A stretch of 63,582 nt of DNA, counting the filler, from Stramenopiles sp. TOSAG23-2 (lineage: Eukaryota): assembly GCA_900128395.1 (NCBI GenBank). It is 20 parts of 20 records of this genome, joined end to end, with 100 filler letters (N's around TTAATTAATTAA, not from the genome) between each part and the next. Parts side by side here need not be neighbours in the genome. Positions count along the whole stretch, not along the records: positions 47,858 to 50,928 come from LT651382.1; 19 more parts are not named here. The stretch is one strand, 5' to 3'. Position numbers and translations under genes: made by a program. Position 1 is the stretch's first letter, and each line of letters opens with the position of its first letter. The notes below the pieces were generated by a model that was not told the DNA's origin, ran no database searches, and saw only the letters and a program-made list of their open reading frames with translations. Shown piece by piece: positions 5,715 through 50,549 of the stretch.

Positions 5715-7297
5715 GGTACGTATGTGTGTGTGTGTTTGTGTATAAATGATATATTTATTCGATATATCTGTACACAGGTGTTTAATGTGAGGCTATTATA
5801 TACCTATTTGTATATATATATAAATAAATCACACAATCAAGGTGATGGGAATGTATATATATTTGTGTGTGTGTGTGCGTGTGTGTGTTTATTTATGTGT
5901 GTTTATTTATTATTATTAGAAGAAGAACGAAATATTGTAATGGAGAGTAGTAGTTTATTGTTATTTCATTATTACACTGTTTATCATTGGATCTAACAGA
6001 TTATTATTAATAGTTAGTACGTTAGTTATTAATAGTACCAAGTATAATACAAAGTACAAGCCATAAAGCAACCAAACAAAACAACCAAAACGTACAACGA
6101 TAAAAGATAAAAGATAAAAAAAGGCTGGAAAAGAAATTGCGGATATAGAGAATAGATAGAGAGCGATAGAAAGCGATAGAAAGGGACCGAGTACTAGATA
6201 TATAGTCTAACACTCCAATTCCACAGTCCACAGTATTCACCTGCTATATGGTATACAAGATACAAGATAGACATATACCCAATAAGATATAAATTTGGAC
6301 ACTCGGACCCAGCCNNNNNNNNNNNNNNNNNNNNNNNNNNNNNNNNNNNNNNNNNNNNTTAATTAATTAANNNNNNNNNNNNNNNNNNNNNNNNNNNNNN
6401 NNNNNNNNNNNNNNTGTGGTGGGCGTGTTTGTGTGTGTACAAACATACTGAAATATATTTTATGCTCATATGTACGTAGTAGATTGTAGAAAAGAAGAAA
6501 GGAACGCGCAAGGGGCTTGTTATGTGTATTGTATTTTAATTATATATAGGTACTATGATATGGTTTTAAATATGATAGATGATGATTAAAATCTTAAGTG
6601 TTATATTTTTAATTTAATTAAATGAAATCTTAAAGTTAGATTAAATAAAATTTATCAATACTCCACCCTACCGCCCACACAAAATACAAAATCTCCATTA
6701 AGCCCATCATTACGCATAATTTTTTTTTAATTTACTCATGATAATTCCTACTCGTCAAAAGAATAAAATAACTGAAATAATCTATCTCACACAAGTGTGT
6801 TGATATTCTCATAATCGAAAATACCAATGAAGGTAAATAGATAGTATCAACTACTCATAATAGCTGATGGAAAACGTGTTATATATCATATATAAAAATT
6901 TCTCTTCTTTATAATTTAAAGATTTTATTTACCCATATATATATACTTCGTATATAATAATTTTACACTAAAAAATATTAATAATATAGATTTTATCATA
7001 TCATATGCATATTTATTTTATATTTTATTTTTACTCGTATAATTTTACCTTCATTTGGTGGTAATTCGTAAATCATCTGGTACAGTAATCTGATAATCTA
7101 ATGCGGATAGAGTTATTAGTCTGCCACAGTCGTCTGCGAAAGTGGTGCAGAGGTGATGTGGTTTTACTTTTACATTTAGTTTTTAATCTCATCAAAGAGA
7201 GAGAGTTCTTTCTGCACTTCTGTTTACTTTATATACTGTACGTATCATAGCTGTACTGAGACCAATTTGAAAATTATTTTTCTTTTTTTGCTGTGTG

Positions 7298-8815
7298 TTA
7301 TTTTTTATCCAAGGGAAGTTCATTTTGAGGAGATACACTGGGAGAAATTGGTAGCATTGTTACCTCTTTATTGTTTGTATTTCGTACTTTTGTATTTTTC
7401 TGTTTATATTTATATAGACGTTTACAGCAGCAGAAAATCAAAATACACAAAGCAGCTGCAGCACCACCAAAAATGTACAATAGCGTATTGCTGATACCAG
7501 GTAGCAAATTTTTGGTGGTGCTTGAAGAGGTGTTGTCAATACTTTCCGGGTTGCCTGTAGTCTCATTGTGGCTATTATTATCTTCATTGCTGGAAGTATC
7601 AATTTCATTGTGGCCATTATTATCTCCATTGCTTGGAGTATAAATTACACTGTCACCACAAGGTTGTGTATTTGTTTCCAAGCGACGCCCTGCTGTAGTT
7701 TTGCAGACATCTTTAATGTTGGAATACGAAGCTTCTAGTGAAGCTACTTTGGCTAAAAGGGCACCCAATGTCACATTCATAGATTGTATTGTCAGAGATA
7801 GTAATGTGTTGTTTCTTTGTAATTGATCAAGTAACACTTCGTTTGAATTTGCTTTTGCTTCATTTGAAGATGATTTTGCTTCATTTTCTTGTATTTTCAG
7901 ATATAATGAAGTGTCGTTTCTATGTAGATTACCAAGTAACACTTCGTTTGAATTTGCTTTTGCTTCATTTTCTTGTATTTTCAGATATAATGCAGTGTCG
8001 TTTCTATGTAGATTACCAAGCAACACTTCGTTTGCATTTGCTTTTGCTTCGTTTGCATTTGCTTTTATTTGAATATTTTGAATATTTGAATTTGTATTGC
8101 TCATATTTACACCTTCTACGATGCAAGTTGCTGCGCCAGCGGCGGACGTTTTCCCGCTATCACACGCAATGCAGCTGGAAGCGTTTGCGTGGAAATTTAC
8201 ATCTGTACCTGGATCACTTAAGTATTTTCCAGCGACGCAAAATTCACAATCGCCTATAGAGCGTTTATCTGCATTGATTCCGGTATATGTACCAGCAGGA
8301 CAAATGCTGCATTCTGATGATCCTTTCGTTGCAAATTTTCCAGCTGGGCATTCGGTGCATTCAAGGTCTCCACTAGCACTAAAAAATCCTGCGCCACATT
8401 CGCTACATTGTTTTTTACAAATACATGTATAACCATTGCTGCATGCTGTACCAGGAAGTACTGAAGCATCACTTGTAAACCTGTATTCAAATGTCAAAAG
8501 TGCGTTTCCTCCAGGAGATGGTGCCCCGCCACTAAAATAGCATCCTTGGGGTTGGCTACTACCAAAACTGAGGGTAGCAGAAGTTGTTGGGGCTTGGTTG
8601 TAATCTTCAGCAAATCGTAAACCAGGCTGTTGTACCCATTTATAGAAGTTAAAACATTCCGCAGAACTTGAAGGCCGGTCATCAGCAGAACTACCGCATG
8701 TCCCAGACGTAATCACTGGACCGAAATAAGCCTCTCCAGCTGGGCAACTAGTAATCGTTGCATCCGATACTTTGGATAGTAAGAAAGCAATGAACCAAAT
8801 GCTACATAAATACAT
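7298..8815 (-). CDS. Type I membrane surface protein: signal peptide, Cys-rich (GCC2_GCC3/ephrin-receptor-like) repeats, repetitive coiled-coil stalk, TM helix
   Basis: Hydrophobic N-terminus; repeated CxxCPAG(K/T)(F/Y); NEAKANSNEVLLGNLHRNDTxLYLKIQE repeats; TM LLYIFGGAAAALCILIFCCC followed by basic residues. Confidence 0.8.
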   Translation of the reverse strand: MYLCSIWFIAFLLSKVSDATITSCPAGEAYFGPVITSGTCGSSADDRPSSSAECFNFYKWVQQPGLRFAEDYNQAPTTSATLSFGSSQPQGCYFSGGAPSPGGNALLTFEYRFTSDASVLPGTACSNGYTCICKKQCSECGAGFFSASGDLECTECPAGKFATKGSSECSICPAGTYTGINADKRSIGDCEFCVAGKYLSDPGTDVNFHANASSCIACDSGKTSAAGAATCIVEGVNMSNTNSNIQNIQIKANANEAKANANEVLLGNLHRNDTALYLKIQENEAKANSNEVLLGNLHRNDTSLYLKIQENEAKSSSNEAKANSNEVLLDQLQRNNTLLSLTIQSMNVTLGALLAKVASLEASYSNIKDVCKTTAGRRLETNTQPCGDSVIYTPSNGDNNGHNEIDTSSNEDNNSHNETTGNPESIDNTSSSTTKNLLPGISNTLLYIFGGAAAALCILIFCCCKRLYKYKQKNTKVRNTNNKEVTMLPISPSVSPQNELPLDKK

Positions 8816-10134
8816 GTATCCAATAATAACCTAAATAGTTGTATTGGTGTATGCTGGAGTAAAGCCTCCAAATCTATTTTTCTGTAGTATAACGTAATTT
8901 ATTTTAATCATTAATTCTGCAATAGCGTAATGCGTAATTGTTTCTCTGGGCACCATAGATCTTCAGGTCCAAATCTACGTTTTCCATTTCCCAGAGAGAA
9001 GACTTAATTGAGACGTAGACGATAGACGATAGACGACTCTTCTCTAAAAAACATAAACAACACAGCGTTTTTTTTTTTTTTTCACACTAAGCACCTAACC
9101 ATACCAGGTACATACTGGCAAGGAAAATCTTTGGTGTCCACCAGCTAACCGGCTAACCAGCTAACAAGCTAACCTGGCTAACCATGTTAATGTAGCTCTA
9201 ACTCTCTCTCTTCTTACCTGTATTGTGTCTTTCCAGTTCCAGCATAATTTTCAATTATTCAGGGATTTCGTTATTTGATAGGTGATCTGCATATACTAAT
9301 TTCCCTTCCAAGTAGAAATAAAGGGAAGAAACCCTACTCACATCATAATTATTATTTTTTTTTAAAATTACAAAGCACACAAGCACACAAAATGAATAAA
9401 TAGAATATATGCATATGTATATAATTGAAACAATACAATCAAGGTAAATTGAATATATAATATATATATATAAGATCAATCTTCCGTTGTATTTTGTATT
9501 CATCTAATTGAATTTTTTNNNNNNNNNNNNNNNNNNNNNNNNNNNNNNNNNNNNNNNNNNNNTTAATTAATTAANNNNNNNNNNNNNNNNNNNNNNNNNN
9601 NNNNNNNNNNNNNNNNNNTCACCCATACAAAGAAAAATAAAAAATGTTTTACATAATACGTTTTAAAAGCGAGGTTTAGATTTGAATTAAAATGATGTTT
9701 GTTGAAATTGAGTAAATAATATATCTCTTTTTTAGAGAGGAAAGAGAGGCATTTTTTTTCGTCGTGGGCACAATTTCATTGTTGGGCAGCGCGGAAAATG
9801 TAATATCGTGTACGTATCTGTATATTAATATATACACGAGTACAAATATATATATGATGGTATCATACAAATATAATAATCATGGTTAAAATCTAAGTTA
9901 TAATATTTTTACACTTCTCGTGTTAAAGTAATATGACCATCAAGAACCACCATGATGAGGCCTACTATTTCTCATTTAAAAAGAATTTAAAAATATTTTA
10001 ACGACATTAGTATACTGATATCGAACGCAATGTATATTTAAAAAAAAAAAAATACTCTTTTACCTATTGGAAAATACAAGTACAAAAATGCAAAATTATC
10101 GCGTGTGTGGTATGTAGTTGTTTTTACTCCCCAG

Positions 10135-12135
10135 TTATTTACTTTTTAAAAAAACAATTGAAGCAAGCGCAGCAATGCCTACTGCAATTGCACCATAACC
10201 AACATAATCATTAAAGCTTAAATCATTTGAATCTGATTTTTTCTTTTTCTTTTTCTTCTTTTTTTTTTTGCTACCGGGTACTTTTGATTTTTTATTTTTA
10301 CTATTATTATTATCATTACTTCTTAATGTTTTCTTATTTGTATTCTGGATAGTAGATGACGTATTAGTACTATTTTGTTGAGGCGGGTGTCCACCTAAAA
10401 ATGATGGTGGTAATACATTTTGTAACGGTGATGGTGCTGTTGATTGCTGAGCTTGTAATTTTGCTGCTTGTTCAGCTGCACGTGCTTCTTTTCCTCTCGT
10501 ATCATCTCCAAAGCGTTTTCCCGTTTTATTAGCCTTTCTTAATTTTTTCCCCAACTTCATTTTTTGTTTCTTATCACGCTGTAAACGTTCTTTAATATTA
10601 ACTCTTAATTTTTTCAATAAATCTACTCGTTTTTCATTATACAACAAACTTCCTTTTACTGCCCATAAATTACTTAATTCACTTTTTACCTTTTTAATAT
10701 CTCCACTATCGTTCCTTTCTACCATTGCTAGTGCCTTTTGTAACCTTGCATCATCAACTTGCTGTAAAAGGTTCATGCTCCTCTTTAATTTAAATGCAGC
10801 TATTTTATTTATGTAGTTGATATGTTGAACAATAATTTTATCTTGAATCATCGTAGTCAATTCTTCATTTGGTGGTACATTTATTGAGGCGGTACCATTA
10901 TCTTTTTCTAATATCAAATTGTTCAAATCTGTAACAAATGTTTGTAACAATTTTATAGATTTTTTTACATTATTGCTTTTGCTAGTATCATCTGAAGTAG
11001 AAGTATCATCTTTTGATTTCTCTTCTTCTTTAGCAGCAGTTGCAGCAGCATTACTTTTCTTCAATTTTGCCTTCAATGAACGATGATATTTCTCAATATC
11101 ACGATATGCTTGAAATAACTTTACATCATCGCTATCCGATGGTTTACAATATTTATCTATAACCTCGCTGCATCCAAAAATTGACATAGATACTGCTTTT
11201 TCAATATTGTCTTTACCTAAAATATTTGCGCATATAGCTAAATTTAAATGAATTTCATTGAGTAATATTTTGCGTTTACTTGCATATGGTTCACCCCATT
11301 TCAACGCGCCTCGCGCTGGAAATTTCGATTTAATAGTATATCCATGTAAAAAATCAATTCCAATTTGATATTGTTTTACCGCTTCGAACACAGCTGCTAA
11401 ATACATTTTGGTTCCTTGCACATCAGGTGGCGGTGAAGTTTGCCATTTTTTCTCCCATAGCTTATTTGCTGATACCAATGCCTCTTTTGCACGGCTTATT
11501 TTCTCCTCTCGCAACATACGTTTTCTACCAGGTACATGGAATTGAACTTGATCAGGTTTGACATGTAAAATTCCACTTTCATATTTTCGTTGATTTGCTA
11601 GTTTTAAATCTTTGCCATTTCCGTCATTTCCCCAGTCTAAATGTACTACATATTCATCGCACACTTGGTTTTGAGCACGTCCTAATCCTTTCAATCCTGG
11701 CTTTTTTCCACCAACATCCCCATTATCATCGTCTAATGCGACGTAAACTTCATTGACGGGATCCCATACGCGACCTTCCACAAATTTTCCAGCACCATAC
11801 GGTGGTACTTTAACATAAACATCTTTTGTTTGACCAGTTTCTTTCAACATTAATTTTTCCAAAATTTCTCTTCCCAATGCCGGTATCGATGGTCCTCTTT
11901 TTTGCAATCTACGAGTAGTACTATAACCATAGAAAATAGGGGATGATTTTTCAAATATATTTGCATCATTTCCTTTGTCATTATTATTGGTGGTATTGTT
12001 ATTTGATAAATCCCGCGAAAGCCATATACCATTTGCTATTGCTGGATGTCGTTTTTTGGTATGTTCAATTCTTCGCTGTTTGGCAGCATCAACCCTGTTA
12101 TATTGATTCATGTTAAAATTTTGCATCATATTCAT
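10135..12135 (-). CDS. Hypothetical tail-anchored protein with a TPR-like helical region
   Basis: 666-aa ORF; TPR-like segment IHLNLAICANILG...CSEVI; Lys tract followed by C-terminal TM YVGYGAIAVGIAALASIVFLKSK. Confidence 0.65.
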   Translation of the reverse strand: MNMMQNFNMNQYNRVDAAKQRRIEHTKKRHPAIANGIWLSRDLSNNNTTNNNDKGNDANIFEKSSPIFYGYSTTRRLQKRGPSIPALGREILEKLMLKETGQTKDVYVKVPPYGAGKFVEGRVWDPVNEVYVALDDDNGDVGGKKPGLKGLGRAQNQVCDEYVVHLDWGNDGNGKDLKLANQRKYESGILHVKPDQVQFHVPGRKRMLREEKISRAKEALVSANKLWEKKWQTSPPPDVQGTKMYLAAVFEAVKQYQIGIDFLHGYTIKSKFPARGALKWGEPYASKRKILLNEIHLNLAICANILGKDNIEKAVSMSIFGCSEVIDKYCKPSDSDDVKLFQAYRDIEKYHRSLKAKLKKSNAAATAAKEEEKSKDDTSTSDDTSKSNNVKKSIKLLQTFVTDLNNLILEKDNGTASINVPPNEELTTMIQDKIIVQHINYINKIAAFKLKRSMNLLQQVDDARLQKALAMVERNDSGDIKKVKSELSNLWAVKGSLLYNEKRVDLLKKLRVNIKERLQRDKKQKMKLGKKLRKANKTGKRFGDDTRGKEARAAEQAAKLQAQQSTAPSPLQNVLPPSFLGGHPPQQNSTNTSSTIQNTNKKTLRSNDNNNSKNKKSKVPGSKKKKKKKKKKKSDSNDLSFNDYVGYGAIAVGIAALASIVFLKSK

Positions 12136-38081: not shown

Positions 38082-38517
38082 AACAGCATGTGTTCATATA
38101 TATATATTTAGAGATAGATATAGATATATATATATATATATACGTGTATTATATACACGTATCGTATCATGATGTGGTAAATGATGAGAAGATAAAAATT
38201 ATTAACGACGTTCGGCACTTCGTTAATTTTTTACGTANNNNNNNNNNNNNNNNNNNNNNNNNNNNNNNNNNNNNNNNNNNNTTAATTAATTAANNNNNNN
38301 NNNNNNNNNNNNNNNNNNNNNNNNNNNNNNNNNNNNNAACAAAATATATAATACATGTTAGTGGAGAGAGTAAAAGTAAATCATATACTAAATATAATAC
38401 TGTAGTACCAAATGTACTAAATCAATATAATTAGAAACAAATATAGACAAAATCAACAACTATATAAAGAAAATTTTTTCATTATTATTGTCAATAATTA
38501 TTGACAATACAAACAAG

Positions 38518-40710
38518 ATGGAAGAAAATAACAATCCATTGGAAATGGAAAGGCAACGTGCCACTTTTCCAATACAGGAAATGAATTTATTATTGAATAA
38601 TAACAAAACATTTCCAGACCGTGATAAAATTATTAAATTATTAAGAGAAGATACAGCACTACAGCAACTCAGAGACAATGAACCTTTTAATAATAAAACA
38701 CAAAATATGAAAGATATGATGTTAAAAACGAAGCGTATACAAGAAATATTAGCAAGCGACTTTCCAGAATTACGTGGTTCATTAGCACGTTTAGCAAACA
38801 AAGCAAATTTAACATATGATTATGCATTTCCACCTTTCAACTCGACGTTATTAAGTGCTGGCGGTAATGGTATGTTTGTTAATGTTATTCGTTCACAAAT
38901 GACGCTGGAACAATCGAAAAAATGGTTATTGCCTGCTATTAAAGGTGAAATTTGGGGTACATATGCACAAACAGAAATGGGGCATGGGAGCAATGTTCGT
39001 GGTTTAGAAACAACTGGTACCTACAACCCATCTACAGAAGAATTTATCATACATTCTCCAACATTATCCTCCACTAAATGGTGGCCAGCACATCTTGGTT
39101 TTGGTTGTACACATGCTGTTGTATATGCAAGGCTTATTGTTGGTGATGTAGATCGTGGTGTGGTTCCTTTCATGGTACAATTAAGAGATACAAAAACATA
39201 TGAACCATTACCTGGTGTACAATTAGGGACCTCTGGACCTACAATAGGCCATTATGCAAATGAACATGGACGTTGTCGCTTTAACAATGTCCGCATTCCG
39301 CGAGACCAATTATGTATGAGATGGCATCAAGTATCACCAGATGGAACATATTTTGCACCAAAAAAAGAAGCAAAAAAAACATCGTATATCACAATGTAAG
39401 TAACTCCTATTCCCCTAAAGCTAGAAAAAGGACATCCTCTCTAACAACACATTGCTGATTCATACGCTACGCTCCACAGGACAAATACCAGAGTTGGTTT
39501 TGTTACCACAGCATATAAGAATTTATCAAAAGCATTGACTATTGGTGTTCGTTATTCATGTTGTAGGAAACAAGGTTTCCCTGCACCTGGTGTACCAGAG
39601 CAAACAATTATGGATTATGGTATGCAACAACATATCATGTTAACATTATTGTCATGTAGTTATGCATTGAAATTTACTTCGTTATATGTAGTAAACTTTT
39701 CCAGCAAAGCAATGGCGCAATTGGATGCCAATACAAGTGAAGGAACGGAAAGTTTTTTAACACAAATGCCTGAATTACATGCAACAACATCTGGTTTAAA
39801 AGCATTAAGTACAAAATTAGCATGTGAAGGGATTGAAGTAATACGTAAAGCTTGTGGGGGACATGGATATGGCCTTTTCAGTGGATTGCCACAATTGTAT
39901 TTAAATACATTAAGAAGCCAAACTGTTGAAGGGGATAATAATGTATTATGTTTGCAAACATCACGATTTTTAGTCAAAGCAATTGAGGAGGCAAAAAGCG
40001 ATGGTGGAGTAAATTTATCTCCGATCTTAGCATATTTAAAACGTGAGTTTACTGGTAACAAAGCACATTGCTCAGTGAAAAATGGATATGATTGGAGAAA
40101 TCGTGATGTTCAATTGAATTGCTTTGGACATTGGGCTTTACGTGAAGTTAGTACAGCAACGGAAAATTATTTAAAAGGCCAAGAAACCATGCCAGAGTAT
40201 CAATCAAAAAACGAAAATATGTATGAATTAGTACAAATGGCATATACACATAGTTATTTCTCTATTTTAACTTCGTTTGCTGGTGCAATTGAAAATTATA
40301 AAGAATCGAATACGATGAATTCTGATGTATTAAGAGTAATGGAACGATTGTGTGATTTATTTGCATTATCTACTTTGCAACAAAATATTGGTGGAATCAC
40401 GATGGATGGTTTTGTTGATCAACAGCAAGTTATGTTATTGAACCAAGAAGTGAAAAGTTTAATGAATGAAATACGGCCTGATGCAGTTGCATTAGTTGAT
40501 TCATTTGGTTTCGACGATATATTAGAATTACATCAAACCGCAATTGGTCGATATGATGGTAATTATACAAAACATTTATGGGAATGGAGTCAAAAAGATC
40601 CAAACAATAATGCAAAAGGAAATAAGAAAACTGGTGATTTCCCACCTGAATTTGATGAAAATTGGGGACCAGTATTGAGTTATTTCAGGAGAAATGCTGG
40701 GAGTTTGTAA
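38518..40710 (+). CDS. ACOX: Acyl-CoA oxidase; 2 exons (38518-39395, 39480-40710)
   Basis: GTYAQTEMGHGSNVRGLETT, KWWP, RKACGGHGY, TVEGDNNV and IGRYDG. Intron 39396-39479 (gtaagt...ctaac...cacag) restores SYITMTNTRV. Confidence 0.95.
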
Positions 40711-43977: not shown

Positions 43978-45315
43978 TTATCTTAAGGTGATAATAGTCG
44001 TCTATTATAATGCTTTAAAAAAGAGTTCTTACAACGGTGTGGTTGGCAGGCTGGGCAGGCCCGCAGGGCAAGAGGCAAGAGGTGAACTTTTCGATGGTAA
44101 TGTACTAATAAAGGATGGCAATATGGCAGCGCTTGAAAATTTCACTGTTTGGAAAAGTGACCGGTCTTTTTTATTGTCTATATTGGAAATTTTTTAACAT
44201 CATACACGGGGCAAAATCACCCTACGATTATTTTAAAAAATTATTCATTACGCAACATACAAACGCCGGAACGCAACAACCAATATATCAAATATCAAAT
44301 ACAGTTATTATTATTATTGGAAACAAATAAAAGCTGCTGGCATTGTCGAAACCCACGATATACATTAAAATAAGCGCAGGATCTGTGTCGGATTTTTATT
44401 TGCCGGTATTTCAAAAGAGCTACCCGCAGTAAACAAAAGAAAAGTGGTTTTGGCCCTAAAGTATTTTTGATTGTTCCAGTGCACTTGTTATAAATGCTTA
44501 GAGGAAGTTTCAACTCCTAAGAAACTTTAAATACATCACTATACAAAAAGACAATCCCAAATCTACAGCAATCCCCGAAAAGATANNNNNNNNNNNNNNN
44601 NNNNNNNNNNNNNNNNNNNNNNNNNNNNNTTAATTAATTAANNNNNNNNNNNNNNNNNNNNNNNNNNNNNNNNNNNNNNNNNNNNATATTTGTTCATATA
44701 CAAAATTTTCCTTAAAATATGATTGATAATAAAAATCTTGTTTTTTTATATTATTTTTGTAATGTGAAAAAATGCGGCACACTTGTCCATAGTGGACTTG
44801 ACCTGCAATTGAATTCCAGGAATTTCAAATAGCGTTTCAATGCTATTTACCTGCTTATAATAATCATCTAAAAATAATAGATAAAAAAATCTTTGTTGTG
44901 AAGACTGTATAAATAAACTGGTAAAGTTTAAGTCAGAATAATAATATATTGTTTAATGTGTATGTGTGTTGTTCAATATTTTACTTACTTGTTTTTTCNN
45001 NNNNNNNNNNNNNNNNNNNNNNNNNNNNNNNNNNNNNNNNNNNNNNNNNNNNNNNNNNNNNNNNNNNNNNNNNNNNNNNNNNNNNNNNNNNNNNNNNNNN
45101 NNNNNNNNNNNNNNNNNNNNNNNNNNNNNNNNNNNNNNNNNNNNNNNNNNNNNNNNNNNNNNNNNNNNNNATATATATATATATAATCGTGTTAACGAGA
45201 AAAAAAAAAGAAGAAAAAAACACGCAGAAAAAAAAACGTATTATTATTATTAGTGAAAAAATAACAGAGGAGTTAGAATATATATATATACAATTAGTAG
45301 ATATATCTAAATAAA

Positions 45316-46811
45316 ATGATGATGAAATATATATCGTTTATAATAGCAGTATCACTATTGTTCATATCTACAACATATTTCGTATCAGCAGAAAAAATCA
45401 GAGCAGCAGCGTATCTATCTCCAGTAGATAAGGCTGGAGGAAAAGCTAAATATGGACGTGTTATATTTGAACAAGATACTATGACTAATCCAGAGGACAA
45501 AAACATTAATCCAGTCAAAGTAGACGTGTCGGAGTTAAAAGGTTTTCCAGAAGGATTATATGGATTTCATATTCACCAGTTTGGTGATTTAATTCAACCT
45601 GGAACACATTTTATACCAATATGCACCGGCCCAGATCCTACTGATCCAACAACAACAACTGCCGCGCCAAGCTCTTGCCAAGATGATGCCACACACGGTT
45701 TTCCTTTGAACCCAAATAACAACGTATATCAAGCAGGTGACCTAGGTAATATAAAATGCAAAGCTGATGGCACTTGTCAAATTTGTGTATGTACAACTAA
45801 AGAAGCTATCGAAAAAGGTCTTGAAGGTATTACGAAGATAAAATATAACGAGCCAGATTGTAATAATTGCCAAGATTCTCAATATTTTAAAGGTGAAAAG
45901 TTTACATTACGTCCGCCTCCTGTTAGTGTAACGAATGATATTGATCGTAGTGTTGTTGCAAGAGCATTAGTCGTTCATTCTCAAGTGGATCATGGTGGGC
46001 CACCATTTGGAAATGTATGTATACCTCTCTCTCTCTTTCTTCTTTTTTTTTGTTTTGTACACAATATATATATATATATATAACTAACATATATGATGAT
46101 ACATATCTACATGAATAAATAAAACAGGCTGGACCACCTATGTCGCGTGGCGTCATTGGACCTGTTGCATTGGATCCAGGACAGACATCCATTGCAACAA
46201 GTGAACCACCACGAAATCCTCCAATATCAGCATTAATCTGCGCATTTGATGAGTATTTAAATACTCAATATGTCGATACAAACCAAAAAATTAGTGGCGA
46301 AGCATTGATTATGATATCAAATGTAAATAATATTAATGGGGAGTGTGAAATGCATGCAGAATTTACAGGATTGCGCCTTGGTGACCATTCATTTCATTTT
46401 CATGCATATTCAACTAATTTAAGTGATCCAAATAGTCAAGTATTAGGTCCTATTTATAATGGACCAGACCCAAATAAAAACCAATTAGAAGTTAAATTAT
46501 TAAATGTTAAATCGGAGGCAGATAAAGCAATTTTTGAAGCAAAATGTTCTTTAGCAGATTTATATAGCTATGCCGGTAGATCATTAACAATACACAAAGG
46601 CCCAGAGATATCAGATCCAACAATTGCTGTTGCGGTTTGTGGCATGGCTAATCCAGATACGTGTTTTAAAGGATCAACCGGGCCAGTTGGATGCTTAAAA
46701 GCTATGAACGTAGCCGATGGTCCCACGACTGCAAATAATGGTAGTGAAATTTACCATTCACTTGTTGTTATTTTGTTATCTGCTTTGATGTTTATTCAAT
46801 TGCAATTTTAA
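45316..46811 (+). CDS. Secreted, probably GPI-anchored, tandem Cu/Zn-SOD-like protein; 2 exons (45316-46014, 46128-46811)
   Basis: Domain 1: GFHIH, GTHF, AGDLGNI, RALVVH. Intron 46015-46127 (gtatgt...actaac...acag) restores GNAGPPMSRGVIG. Domain 2: HSFHFH, GRSLTIH. Signal peptide and hydrophobic C-terminus. Confidence 0.85.
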
Positions 46812-47757: not shown

Positions 47758-47859
47758 NNNNNNNNNNNNNNNNNNNNNNNNNNNNNNNNNNNNNNNNNNN
47801 NTTAATTAATTAANNNNNNNNNNNNNNNNNNNNNNNNNNNNNNNNNNNNNNNNNNNNGT

Positions 47860-50172
47860 ACTGGATTGGATGCAGTAGAATGGGCAAAGAAAGGTGTTAG
47901 TTTAGGTGCAGGAGAAATTTTATTAACAAGTTTTGATGAAGATGGCCAAGGCAAAGGATTTGATTGTAAACTTTTAAATGCCGTTTCAACTGCCGTGGAT
48001 GTACCAGTCATTGCATCTGGTGGTGCAAAAACGGCACAGCATATGATCAATGCCTTTGAGAGCGGAGCAGATGCGGTATTAGCTGCAACAATTTTTCATT
48101 TTGGGGAGACAACAGTTGGTAAATTAAAGTTGGAAATTGGTGATTCTTTTCCAGTTCGCATGACATCAAATTTAACAAAAAATATTGCAAAATTAGAAAA
48201 GAAAGCACAGACAATTATTCCAAGTATCGATTTGATGGGTGGCAATGCTGTACAATTAGTAGGTGGTGATCCAAATAAATTGGAAGTGGATGGTGGCAAT
48301 CCTATGAAATTAGTCAATCGTTTTGGTATTGCAGGGGAAGTTGCCGTGATTGATTTAGATAGTGCATTTGGGAAAGGTAAAGATAATGTCGAAGTTGTAC
48401 ATAATTTAATCAAATCTGGTGTCCAATGCCGAGTTGGTGGTGGTATACGATCAAAAGAAAAGGCACTTGATTATTTAAATGCAGGTGCGACGCAAGTAAT
48501 CGTAGGCACAGCAGCATCGCCAGAATTTTGCAAAGAATTACCACGTGATCGTATTATGGTAGCATTAGATGCACGCCATGGTGAAGTTGTTACACATGGA
48601 TGGACGACTAAAACTGGTGCAACCGTGAAAGATCGTTTGAAGGAATTATGCCCATATGCATCTTCTTTTTTAATTACATTTGTTGAACGGGAAGGTCGAT
48701 TGAAAGGCTGTGACTTCCCTGCAATACAAGAATTAGTTGATATTGCAAAGGCATCTGAAATTCAACCTGTTTCGTTAACTATAGCTGGTGGCATTACAAC
48801 AACAAGTGACATTGCAAGGTTAGATGCCATGGGTGTACAAGCACAAGTTGGAATGGCATTGTATACTAAGAAATTGCATTTAGGTGATGCCATATTTGCA
48901 CCTATGAAATCTGACAGACCAGATCGTATGATACCAACTGTAGTTGCAGATCAAAGTAATCGTGTTTTAGGATTAGCGTTTTCAAACGAGGCGAGTATAC
49001 GAGCATGTATTGATAATTGTGCTGGCGCATATTGGTCGCGTTCAAGAAATAATTTATGGATTAAAGGTGCAACCAGTGGAGACACCCAAGAGTTAGTTCG
49101 TATCGATATGGATTGTGATCGTGATGCATTTCGTTTCATAGTCAAACCAAAATCAAGAACTAGTGGGTTTTGCCATGTGCCGGGGCAACCGGAGTGTTTT
49201 GGTAAAGCACGTGGATTAGCACATCTAGAAGCATCTGTATTTTCACGTTTGGAAAATGCACCGGAAGGTTCTTATACCATGCGCTTATTTAAAGACAAAG
49301 CGTTGTTGGAAAATAAATTATTAGAAGAGGCTGGAGAATTAGCTGAAGCGGAAGAACCAGCTCATGTTGCAGAGGAATATGCGGATGTTTTATATTTTGC
49401 AATGGTTAAAGCTGTTAGCAAAGGTGTTAGTATCGCTGATTTAGAAAGATGTTTAGATCGACGTGCATTGAGGGTATCGCGTAGAAAAGGAAATGCAAAA
49501 CCAGGATCCTATAAAAAGCAAAAAGAACAAAAAGAAAAAAGGATAACTGATAAGAAGAAAAGTTCTAAAATTTCAACTAGCAAAAATCGCACATCAGGAA
49601 CATTGTCACGTAAATCTGCGGAGACGGAAATAGTAGTCTCAGTTGATATTGATGGTACTGGCAAGGCAAAGGTTGATACTGGTTTAGGATTTTTAGACCA
49701 TATGATATCCGCATTAGCAAAACATTCATCGATGGACATAGCATTAAAAGCAAAGGGTGATTTATATGTTGATGATCATCACACTGCTGAAGATTGTGGT
49801 ATAATGTTAGGTAAAGCTATTGATGCAGCATTGGGGCAACGTAAAGATATTGCACGTTGGGGATGGGGTTTATGCCCATTGGATGAAGCATTATCAAGAG
49901 CCGTTGTTGATGTTAGTGGTAGACCACATGCACATGTAAAATTAAATTTAAAACGTGAAATGATTGGGGAAATATCAACTGAAATGTTGACTCATTTTAT
50001 TGAATCCGTAGTAACAGCCGCGCGTTTAACCGTACATGTAACCAATTTAGAAGGTACAAATGATCATCATCGTAGTGAAAGTGCATTTAAAGCATTAGCA
50101 GTTGCGTTGAAAATGGCATTTGCTTATAAGGCTGGTGCTGGTGTATTATCAACAAAAGATTTAATCGATTAA
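47860..50172 (+). CDS. hisF-hisA-hisI-hisE-hisB: Multifunctional histidine biosynthesis fusion HisF(C-terminal half)-HisA-like-HisI-HisE-HisB(IGPD), 5'-partial
   Basis: His[11 protein letters not shown]...GAGEILLTS...VIASGGA. HisA: IIPSIDL, VGGGIR, VALD, AGGI. HisI: YWSRSR...WIKGATSG...DCDRD...FCH...C. HisE: SYT...KLLEEAGE...[35 protein letters not shown]. Confidence 0.95.
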
Positions 50173-50549
50173 ATAAAGAGAGAGAGAGAGAGAGAGAATA
50201 AGGGTATTTGAAGGGTGAGAAAATGTAGATTAATATATATTACAAATCTGGATATAAATATATATGTGCGGGAATGTAATATAGTTTTTTTGATATTTTT
50301 ATATACCACGCGTGTTTTTATAAAAATATATAAAGCCTTTTGTTCCAATTTTAAAAATTGACATAATAAATACAAATTGCCTTTTATTTGATATCACAAT
50401 AAATTGGATACACATCGATTTCACCTATCACATGACAATACTTTATACTTAAAAGGGAAATTAGAATATGTCAAAAAATACCAGAAATATACAGTATCAT
50501 ATGAAATAGAATTTAATACACACCTATAAATTATATATATTTACATAAA

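Follow-up and report, generated by a model that had tools for sequence, protein, structure and literature searches.

Multifunctional enzymes of histidine biosynthesis are familiar in eukaryotes. For example, HIS7 of yeast and HISN4 of plants (PDB 1jvn) carry HisH upstream of HisF, and yeast HIS4 joins HisI, HisE and HisD in that order. An analogous arrangement, built from unrelated domains in an unrelated amino-acid pathway, may be seen in AROM, the pentafunctional shikimate enzyme in which one polypeptide performs five consecutive steps. The closest described system was reported more recently by Rice et al. (2018), who found in Acanthamoeba a 1682-aa 'novel heptafunctional fusion' with seven activities and with relatives in Thecamonas and two choanoflagellates (PMC6029752, available excerpts). 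According to the same excerpts, the imidazole glycerol phosphate dehydratase (IGPD) of Acanthamoeba is a separate protein that forms a canonical 24-mer. Here we analyse a 63,582-nucleotide stretch ('the window') of the Stramenopiles sp. TOSAG23-2 assembly (GCA_900128395.1), in which positions 47860–50172 encode a histidine fusion with the same core as the Acanthamoeba protein and IGPD as its tail. Very probably, this is a real, expressed nuclear gene without introns from an uncultured, AT-rich marine protist, of which the 3′ two-thirds are present. Its product, of ∼1148 aa and ∼124 kDa with the order HisH-HisF-HisA-HisI-HisE-linker-IGPD, would form a branch of the Acanthamoeba-type family in which a eukaryote-type IGPD stands in for the C-terminal HisD(-HisG) module.

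Domain layout and integrity of the gene

A single open frame on the plus strand, on which all domains below lie, encodes 770 residues (P0001) from the first real base after a spacer to a TAA stop (50170–50172), which is followed by a (GA)n run. The frame opens within HisF, the cyclase subunit of imidazole glycerol phosphate (IGP) synthase (47860–48132), with residues 1–91 matching positions 153–244 of the 254 in NCBIfam model TIGR00735 (E 1e-39). The contig ends at this point, with the frame still open on its 5′ side; the N-terminus is missing for a technical reason. A linker (48133–48210), whose length and part of whose sequence are kept in Acanthamoeba-type fusions, leads into the barrel of HisA, the isomerase of phosphoribosyl-formimino-5-aminoimidazole-4-carboxamide ribonucleotide (ProFAR). 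This HisA (48211–48897) belongs to the HisA-HisIE subfamily and is recognized by Pfam (His_biosynth, E 1.4e-66 over two stretches, the best at residues 119–339), by NCBIfam (residues 118–346) and by the motifs PSID (48220–48234), ALDA (48559–48573) and EREG (48679–48696). HisI, the phosphoribosyl-AMP cyclohydrolase (48910–49212), carries DCDRD at 49111–49125 and Cys/His ligand motifs at 49165–49200 (PRA-CH, residues 372–447, E 7.9e-22, 77.3 bits). HisE, the phosphoribosyl-ATP (PR-ATP) pyrophosphohydrolase (49216–49467), carries acidic metal motifs at 49321–49350 and 49369–49389 (PRA-PH, residues 459–535, E 3.5e-14, 53.4 bits). Both matches exceed the Pfam cut-offs, stand in the order I then E and retain their metal ligands, and NCBIfam assigns residues 351–536 to HisIE.

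A Lys-rich linker of low model confidence (49480–49593), which is bridged by independent contigs, forms the junction that defines the IGPD-ending variant. IGPD, the HisB dehydratase, is the last domain (49594–50163). It scores 190.5 bits against PF00475 (cut-off 27; E 2.1e-56, residues 607–750) and 233.2 bits against NCBIfam HisB model NF002111 (cut-off 231; residues 579–768). Both (D/N)DHHxxE metal motifs are present, at 49771–49794 and 50059–50082, as is a C-terminal S-T-K at 50146–50160. The domain aligns with residues 4–189 of the 192 in the Acanthamoeba IGPD (PDB 6fwh), with the metal motifs and the C-terminal S-x-K loop kept. Profile scans of P0001 and of its full-length counterpart P0002 gave no match to Histidinol_dh (PF00815), HisG or HAD; neither the HisD that follows HisE in HIS4 nor the HAD phosphatase that precedes IGPD in HisNB was found.

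The original prediction had read this region as one intronless frame running from the HisF C-terminus through HisA, HisI, HisE and a linker to IGPD, and its coordinates agree with the profile matches to within a few codons. The motifs that it named (PSID, ALD, DCDRD...CH...C and both (D/N)DHHxxE) are all there. It had also singled out REG in place of RDG in HisA; EREG is present, but it is not peculiar to this gene, being found in 86 of the 108 HisA-HisIE-type matches checked.

The suggestion in the original prediction that the missing 5′ part may add HisH was confirmed when a word-indexed database search recovered the N-terminus in a full-length protein (P0002, 1148 aa). P0002 is identical to the window translation at 769 of 770 residues and has the order HisH-HisF-HisA-HisI-HisE-IGPD, its first 378 residues supplying HisH (glutamine amidotransferase, residues 5–203) and the rest of HisF. 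The sole mismatch lies at 48803, where the window has C (Thr315) and P0002–P0004 and all four aligned runs have A (Lys); the C is probably an assembly error or a rare variant. Three further proteins, 73–89% identical, show the same six-domain order (P0003, from EukProt, 1157 aa; P0005, 1160 aa; P0006, 1153 aa), and P0004 has the same layout in an N-terminally short gene model. A more distant 566-aa fragment (P0337, 55% identical) has the order HisA-HisI-HisE-IGPD with a Ser-rich linker. An AlphaFold2 model of P0002, built from an 87-row alignment, reached a mean predicted local distance difference test score (pLDDT) of 90.3. Confidence falls only in the last five residues and in three linkers at residues ∼210–230, ∼480–500 and ∼920–955; in the HisF-HisA linker (residues 481–500) pLDDT is 72–76.

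Public sequencing runs gave independent views of the joints. The stretch or part of it occurs in 20 of 24 listed runs from 12 studies, including six RNA libraries, several of which are polyA-selected marine metatranscriptomes. One RNA-library contig (2326 nt) spans 47858–49880 with two mismatches and extends 303 nt further upstream, and contigs from polyA libraries span 48439–49278 (HisA to HisE) and 49324–49792 (HisE through the linker into IGPD). The HisF/HisA border is also spanned by DNA contigs from two further runs, one of which (X3) spans the HisE/IGPD border as well; no joints were reported in them. Between them, the independent DNA and RNA-library contigs cross every domain junction, the check that had been proposed for the fusion. 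Sixteen of 20 in-frame variant sites are synonymous, and two of the other four share one codon of one short contig, where they jointly still encode Leu. In one RNA run the bin containing the Lys-rich linker (49506–49608) shows a depth spike of 203.6, which is most likely due to unrelated contigs of low complexity rather than to the His fusion gene.

Eukaryotic relatives and the bacterial operon

A census restricted to proteins of 631–2009 aa found 101 at E ≤ 1e-20 among 8000 scored candidates. Behind five IGPD-ending proteins come eukaryotic proteins of 1331–1783 aa that are 42–52% identical over 76–89% of the query and have the Pfam order HisH-HisF-HisA-HisI-HisE-HisD(-HisG). Among them are the 'histidinol dehydrogenases' of Acanthamoeba castellanii (1682 aa, P0123) and Thecamonas trahens (1720 aa, P0127), which share the HisH-F-A-I-E core in the same order at 46–52% identity over ∼80% of the query. 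In a nine-sequence alignment the two types are collinear through both internal linkers up to an RRKGxAKP motif at the end of HisE. Past this point, the IGPD-ending family continues with a basic linker and IGPD, whereas the Acanthamoeba type continues with HisD. The Acanthamoeba and Thecamonas proteins thereby add HisD and HisG (steps 9, 10 and 1); the TOSAG23-2 fusion lacks both and its steps are consecutive. Thus, it has the domain order and the collinearity, linkers included, of the Acanthamoeba-type family without the C-terminal HisD/HisG, and since the alignment is collinear to the end of HisE, the core is known and the tail alone is new.

The other known fusions share less. HIS7 likewise has HisH upstream of HisF and keeps the Cys-His-Glu triad and the HisF Asp, but it ends after HisF, and the HisF of the TOSAG23-2 fusion is nearer to bacterial HisF chains (E 1e-66 to 1e-84) than to 1jvn (1.2e-55). 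HIS4 also places HisI and then HisE in a longer multifunctional protein; the fusion described here differs in lacking HisD, in having HisA before HisI and in belonging to a separate HisA-HisIE subfamily that is shared with bacteria. In E. coli-type HisNB and in the IGPD fusions found in databases (among them P0176, P0181, P0186, P0205 and P0344), IGPD is likewise last behind a large N-terminal load, although the partner is HisN or HisC rather than HisH-F-A-I-E. The original prediction held that IGPD is otherwise either standalone or part of HisNB. This proved wrong: databases contain many HisC-HAD-IGPD, HAD-IGPD and HisC-IGPD proteins and one HisD-HisC-HAD-IGPD (P0344, 1401 aa). IGPD was the last domain in all 13 other IGPD fusions scanned that have a complete IGPD, a position consistent with its C-terminal loop having a catalytic role (PMC6029752, available excerpts). 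Proteins with the order HisA-HisI-HisE-HisD-HisC-HAD also exist (P0366 and P0397, 1501 and 1586 aa); together with P0344 these are further mega-fusions that look undescribed. Two other combinations were seen, HisA-HisIE-HisG (P0013) and HisF-HisG with a possible HisH (P0144).

The IGPD tail is rare. HisI-HisE-linker-IGPD was used as query for an exhaustive HMMER search against 1.84 billion cluster representatives. Among the best 150 representatives only P0337 matches across the whole query; each of the others covers one half only, HisIE or IGPD, and IGPD is again the last domain in all the longer IGPD matches among them. A full-text literature search, which did not extend to supplementary files, found no description of a HisH-F-A-I-E-IGPD protein, and the available parts of PMC7284861, PMC10138114 and PMC3901274 do not mention one. 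In the portion available, the review of Fani et al. (2007) lists five his fusions and says that eukaryotes lack hisNB (PMC1963479). A protein atlas returned HisHF-type clusters only (score 0.78, a lead only). The original prediction had called the architecture unfamiliar; the core of the mega-fusion was in fact published for Acanthamoeba (PMC6029752, available excerpts), and what can be called undescribed is the variant with a C-terminal IGPD.

The HisA-HisIE subfamily points beyond eukaryotes. Its members, both bacterial and eukaryotic, are 45–56% identical to the TOSAG23-2 domains, as against ∼26–36% for canonical HisA and HisIE. Scanning one genome for each prokaryotic species yielded 80 named loci (L081–L160) in Gemmatimonadota, Planctomycetota (especially Phycisphaerales), Myxococcota, Geminicoccaceae and other Alphaproteobacteria, Acidobacteriota, Armatimonadota, Sumerlaeota and Thermodesulfobacteriota. 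Nearly all have the operon hisG / hisC(-HAD) / hisB / hisH hisF / hisA-IE / hisD (e.g. L094:6001–9225, L104 and L125:4040–10856). The operon thus shares with the eukaryotic fusion both the order H, F, A-IE and the fused HisA-HisIE unit, but its genes are separate and hisB lies before hisH instead of after hisIE. Fusions were counted as a shared stop-to-stop open reading frame (ORF). A and IE share one in 61 of the 80 loci and lie apart in none (fused 61/61); H and F share one in 21 and lie apart in 53; C and HAD share one in 30, C and B in seven, and IE and D in two (L119 and L125). F and A are joined in 0/80, and hisB follows hisIE in 0/80. L125 was considered as a bacterial single-frame H-F-A-IE(-D) fusion and rejected, there being a stop between HisHF (6558–8090) and HisA-IE-D (8139–10856). 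The eukaryotic H-F-A-I-E-D and C-N-B orders correspond to runs of neighbouring genes in this operon. We found no paper on the HisA-HisIE fusion or on this operon type.

Trees were made from HisA-IE (51 rows) and from HisF+HisA+HisIE (53 and 39 rows), rooted on H-A-F-IE-type fusions. The eukaryote-labelled fusions form one clade nested in the bacterial operon type, with Shimodaira–Hasegawa-like approximate likelihood ratio test (SH-aLRT) values of 99, 94 and 97 in the 51-, 53- and 39-row trees, respectively. Within it the IGPD-ending proteins form their own clade (98–100), weakly placed beside the Thecamonas branch (81–88). The domain orders and trees make an operon origin of the H-F-A-I-E core plausible. 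In the 53-row tree Myxococcota (L104 and L108) were the sister group of the eukaryotic clade (SH-aLRT 96), a placement that was lost in the 39-row tree and is not retained. A metagenome contig (L012:3173–10208), sister to all eukaryotic fusions with an SH-aLRT of 98, has four same-strand ORFs, IGPD / HisH-HisF / HisA-HisIE / HisD-HisG, and a peptidyl-tRNA hydrolase that is split in two ORFs as if by an intron. Its layout may represent a stage between operon and mega-fusion, either still unfused or spliced. Loci from the metagenome scan reach only 44–60% best-segment identity and are mostly of the operon type; the contigs of the close orthologues are not among them. In three trees a 687-aa HisF-HisA-HisIE protein (P0008) groups with Phycisphaerales; it is either a bacterial F-A fusion, absent from the 80 genome loci, or a gene-calling artefact.

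The tail points to a different history. The closest free-standing IGPDs come from eukaryotes (Diplonema 62%, Ectocarpus 62%, Guillardia 60%, corals and Nuclearia 58%), and overall it is the IGPD ends of HisC-HAD-IGPD proteins that match best (68–70%; P0176 70%, P0181 68%). Two IGPD trees (191–193 columns) place the tail with these ends and not with the operon-type bacterial IGPDs, at a support of only 85–91. These affinities suggest that the lineage inherited an H-F-A-I-E(-D) fusion and then exchanged its tail for a eukaryotic IGPD. The earlier proposal of a horizontally acquired fused operon fits the core, whose order matches the bacterial operon and whose clade is nested in bacteria; it does not fit the E-to-IGPD joint, which occurs in 0/80 loci. 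The tail, grouping as it does with eukaryotic IGPDs, is not accounted for by a 'recently acquired fused operon'.

Two explanations would deny that the fusion is a real eukaryotic gene. The assembly is highly fragmented, into pieces of ∼3.1 kb, and base 48803 disagrees with all four aligned runs, as might be expected if separate genes had been mis-joined in a single-cell or metagenome assembly or in a gene model. Yet independent contigs of four other runs span every junction at at least 99% identity, none of them continues differently within the frame, except that one low-depth contig has a loose end at 48230, and the layout is common to five more database proteins of different sources. Such a joining error is highly improbable, and the independent contigs and orthologues exclude a chimera for practical purposes. 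Nor is it credible, except as an outside chance, that a his operon of a contaminating bacterium was misread as one gene, even though bacteria with the hisB/H F/A-IE operon are 44–60% identical per domain and the HisF part is closer to bacterial HisF structures than to yeast HIS7. A bacterial operon would have to run without a stop over 2310 bases and five domain borders, with F joined to A and B placed after IE, neither of which occurs in the 80 bacterial loci. The stretch is moreover present in polyA-selected libraries, one orthologue comes from EukProt (P0003), and eukaryotic genes (DOT1, KRR1, U-box/ankyrin, JmjC and acyl-CoA oxidase) lie on further pieces of the assembly.

The source contig and other features of the window

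The 63.6-kb window consists of 20 pieces, whose lengths decrease gradually from 3107 to about 3060 bases, and its 19 breaks each consist of two runs of 44 Ns lying 12 bases apart. In the one spacer inspected, the 12 bases between the N44 runs are TTAATTAATTAA; the spacer before the HisF frame, for example, covers 47758–47857. The gene lies on a single 3071-bp contig (47858–50928) with N44/12-base/N44 spacers on either side. Because the pieces are separate contigs, the neighbourhood across spacers is uninformative; a nitroreductase-like frame to the left of the gene is on a different contig. The G+C content of the window is ∼30%, and the eukaryotic genes on its other pieces include DOT1, KRR1, U-box/ankyrin, JmjC and protein kinase genes and a split acyl-CoA oxidase. 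An Rfam search of the window gave no matches.

Several further features were noted. The acyl-CoA oxidase (38431–40710) lies in two frames 45 bases apart (39399/39445); the split looks like a very short intron and hints at the size of introns in this organism. At 45301–46811, two neighbouring frames each encode a domain resembling Cu/Zn superoxide dismutase (E 3e-13 and 8e-6); the N-terminus of the first is hydrophobic, and the two are possibly one secreted two-domain protein with a short intron between its parts. Downstream of the fusion, ∼100 bases upstream of the next frame, an element of ∼34 bases (50436–50469) recurs in many otherwise unrelated contigs of three metagenome runs, where it shows depth spikes of 55–203 and many loose ends on both sides. 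An 18-mer resembling it lies at 9291–9308 on the minus strand. Two matches in the window compare with 0.37 expected, and five of 100 shuffles also reach two, so the statistics are too weak to interpret; it may be that the organism has a dispersed element here, either promoter-like or a repeat.

Predicted function, assembly and meaning

HisE, HisI, HisA, HisH/HisF and IGPD account for steps 2 to 6 of histidine biosynthesis. The fusion would therefore cover, by domain content, the five consecutive steps from PR-ATP to imidazole-acetol phosphate in one polypeptide, as the original prediction had proposed. In such an enzyme, HisE would remove pyrophosphate from PR-ATP, HisI would open the purine ring and HisA would isomerise ProFAR. 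HisH/HisF would then use glutamine to yield IGP and AICAR (5-aminoimidazole-4-carboxamide ribonucleotide) with release of glutamate, and IGPD would dehydrate IGP to imidazole-acetol phosphate. Residues to which catalytic or ligand roles are assigned in the separate enzymes are conserved. In P0002 numbering, the HisH triad (C82, H189 and E191), HisF D238 and D357, HisI D796, C797, D798, D800, C816, H817 and C824, and HisE E867, E868, E871, E884 and D887 are invariant in all nine aligned fusions. The two Asp of HisA are kept in eight of the nine, the exception being P0131. For IGPD, the metal motifs and the C-terminal loop have catalytic and phosphate-binding roles (PMC6029752, available excerpts). 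This conservation suggests that all five predicted activities are retained.

The IGPD domain also bears on assembly. According to the available text of PMC6029752, every IGPD known is a 24-mer with active sites at the subunit interfaces; an active IGPD domain would thus need assembly. With these intersubunit sites, and with IGPD at the free C-terminus behind a linker of ∼35 residues, the fusion probably assembles through IGPD, as free IGPDs do, into a 24-mer of ∼3 MDa (24 chains of 123.8 kDa, or 2.97 MDa), for which homology would predict 432 symmetry. The minimal benefit of the fusion is fixed stoichiometry and co-expression.

Two readings accept the gene and dispute what its product does. 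In one, at least one domain is catalytically dead and serves as scaffold or regulator, with separate genes supplying the activity. The related fusion P0131 has a degenerate HisA (36% identity), with PLVSV for PSIDL and E for the second Asp, and domain decay therefore does happen in this fusion family. Every motif checked is nevertheless intact in the TOSAG23-2 protein and in four close orthologues, and variation is mostly synonymous over the entire frame; we consider a dead domain unlikely here. In the other reading all domains are active, but the N-terminal load limits the protein to trimers or other small assemblies, so that stoichiometry and co-expression are the only benefit. Twenty-four arms of ∼100 kDa round a core of ∼500 kDa may indeed clash, and the model, with a predicted template modelling score (pTM) of 0.59, gives no domain arrangement. 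What speaks for the 24-mer is that IGPD active sites are intersubunit and that known IGPDs are all 24-mers (PMC6029752, available excerpts), that many natural proteins carry IGPD, always last, behind large N-terminal fusions, and that the ∼35-residue linker is flexible. A small assembly is a real possibility, albeit one that we doubt.

The preferred reading, an expressed six-domain gene with five retained activities, has points weighing against it as well. HisA falls below the NCBIfam equivalog cut-offs (NF010112, 198.9 against 243; TIGR00007, 187.6 against 228.95), low scores that reflect a divergence common to the whole HisA-HisIE subfamily. Contigs from RNA libraries may stem from DNA, and a separate, free IGPD gene may exist elsewhere in the organism. 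At a pTM of 0.59 the relative placement of domains is not fixed, and all trees are quick searches with SH-aLRT as their only support.

A bolder picture can be drawn, tentatively. The fusion could be a covalent form of the histidine 'metabolon' that has long been postulated, in which an IGPD 24-mer forms the core of a ∼3 MDa particle and 24 flexible arms, each with HisE, HisI, HisA and HisH-F, take PR-ATP through five steps without release of intermediates. At the same time, the eukaryotic His mega-fusions (H-F-A-I-E-D, C-N-B and the IGPD-ending type) could be frozen pieces of one bacterial operon, hisG/C-N/B/H F/A-IE/D, that was taken up once and then reshuffled, with the E-to-IGPD joint as one such reshuffle. 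We hold this combination to be conceivable rather than likely.

Among the fusions examined, the IGPD-ending protein stands alone as a natural histidine protein whose fused steps all follow one another (2 to 6). Fani et al. proposed a 'hisBHAF core metabolon', and the fusion physically joins the products of that proposed unit plus HisIE (PMC1963479, available portion). It is therefore an object for testing substrate channelling and IGPD-scaffolded assembly. Two statements made in reviews need revision: the number of his fusions is not limited to five, and eukaryotes do have an IGPD fusion. The Acanthamoeba type, the C-N-B type, the bacterial operon and the IGPD-ending fusion together form a series of stages in which the passage from operon order to domain order in eukaryotes can be studied. 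The importance of the fusion would rise if the particle and channelling prove true, or if the link between operon and domain order holds.

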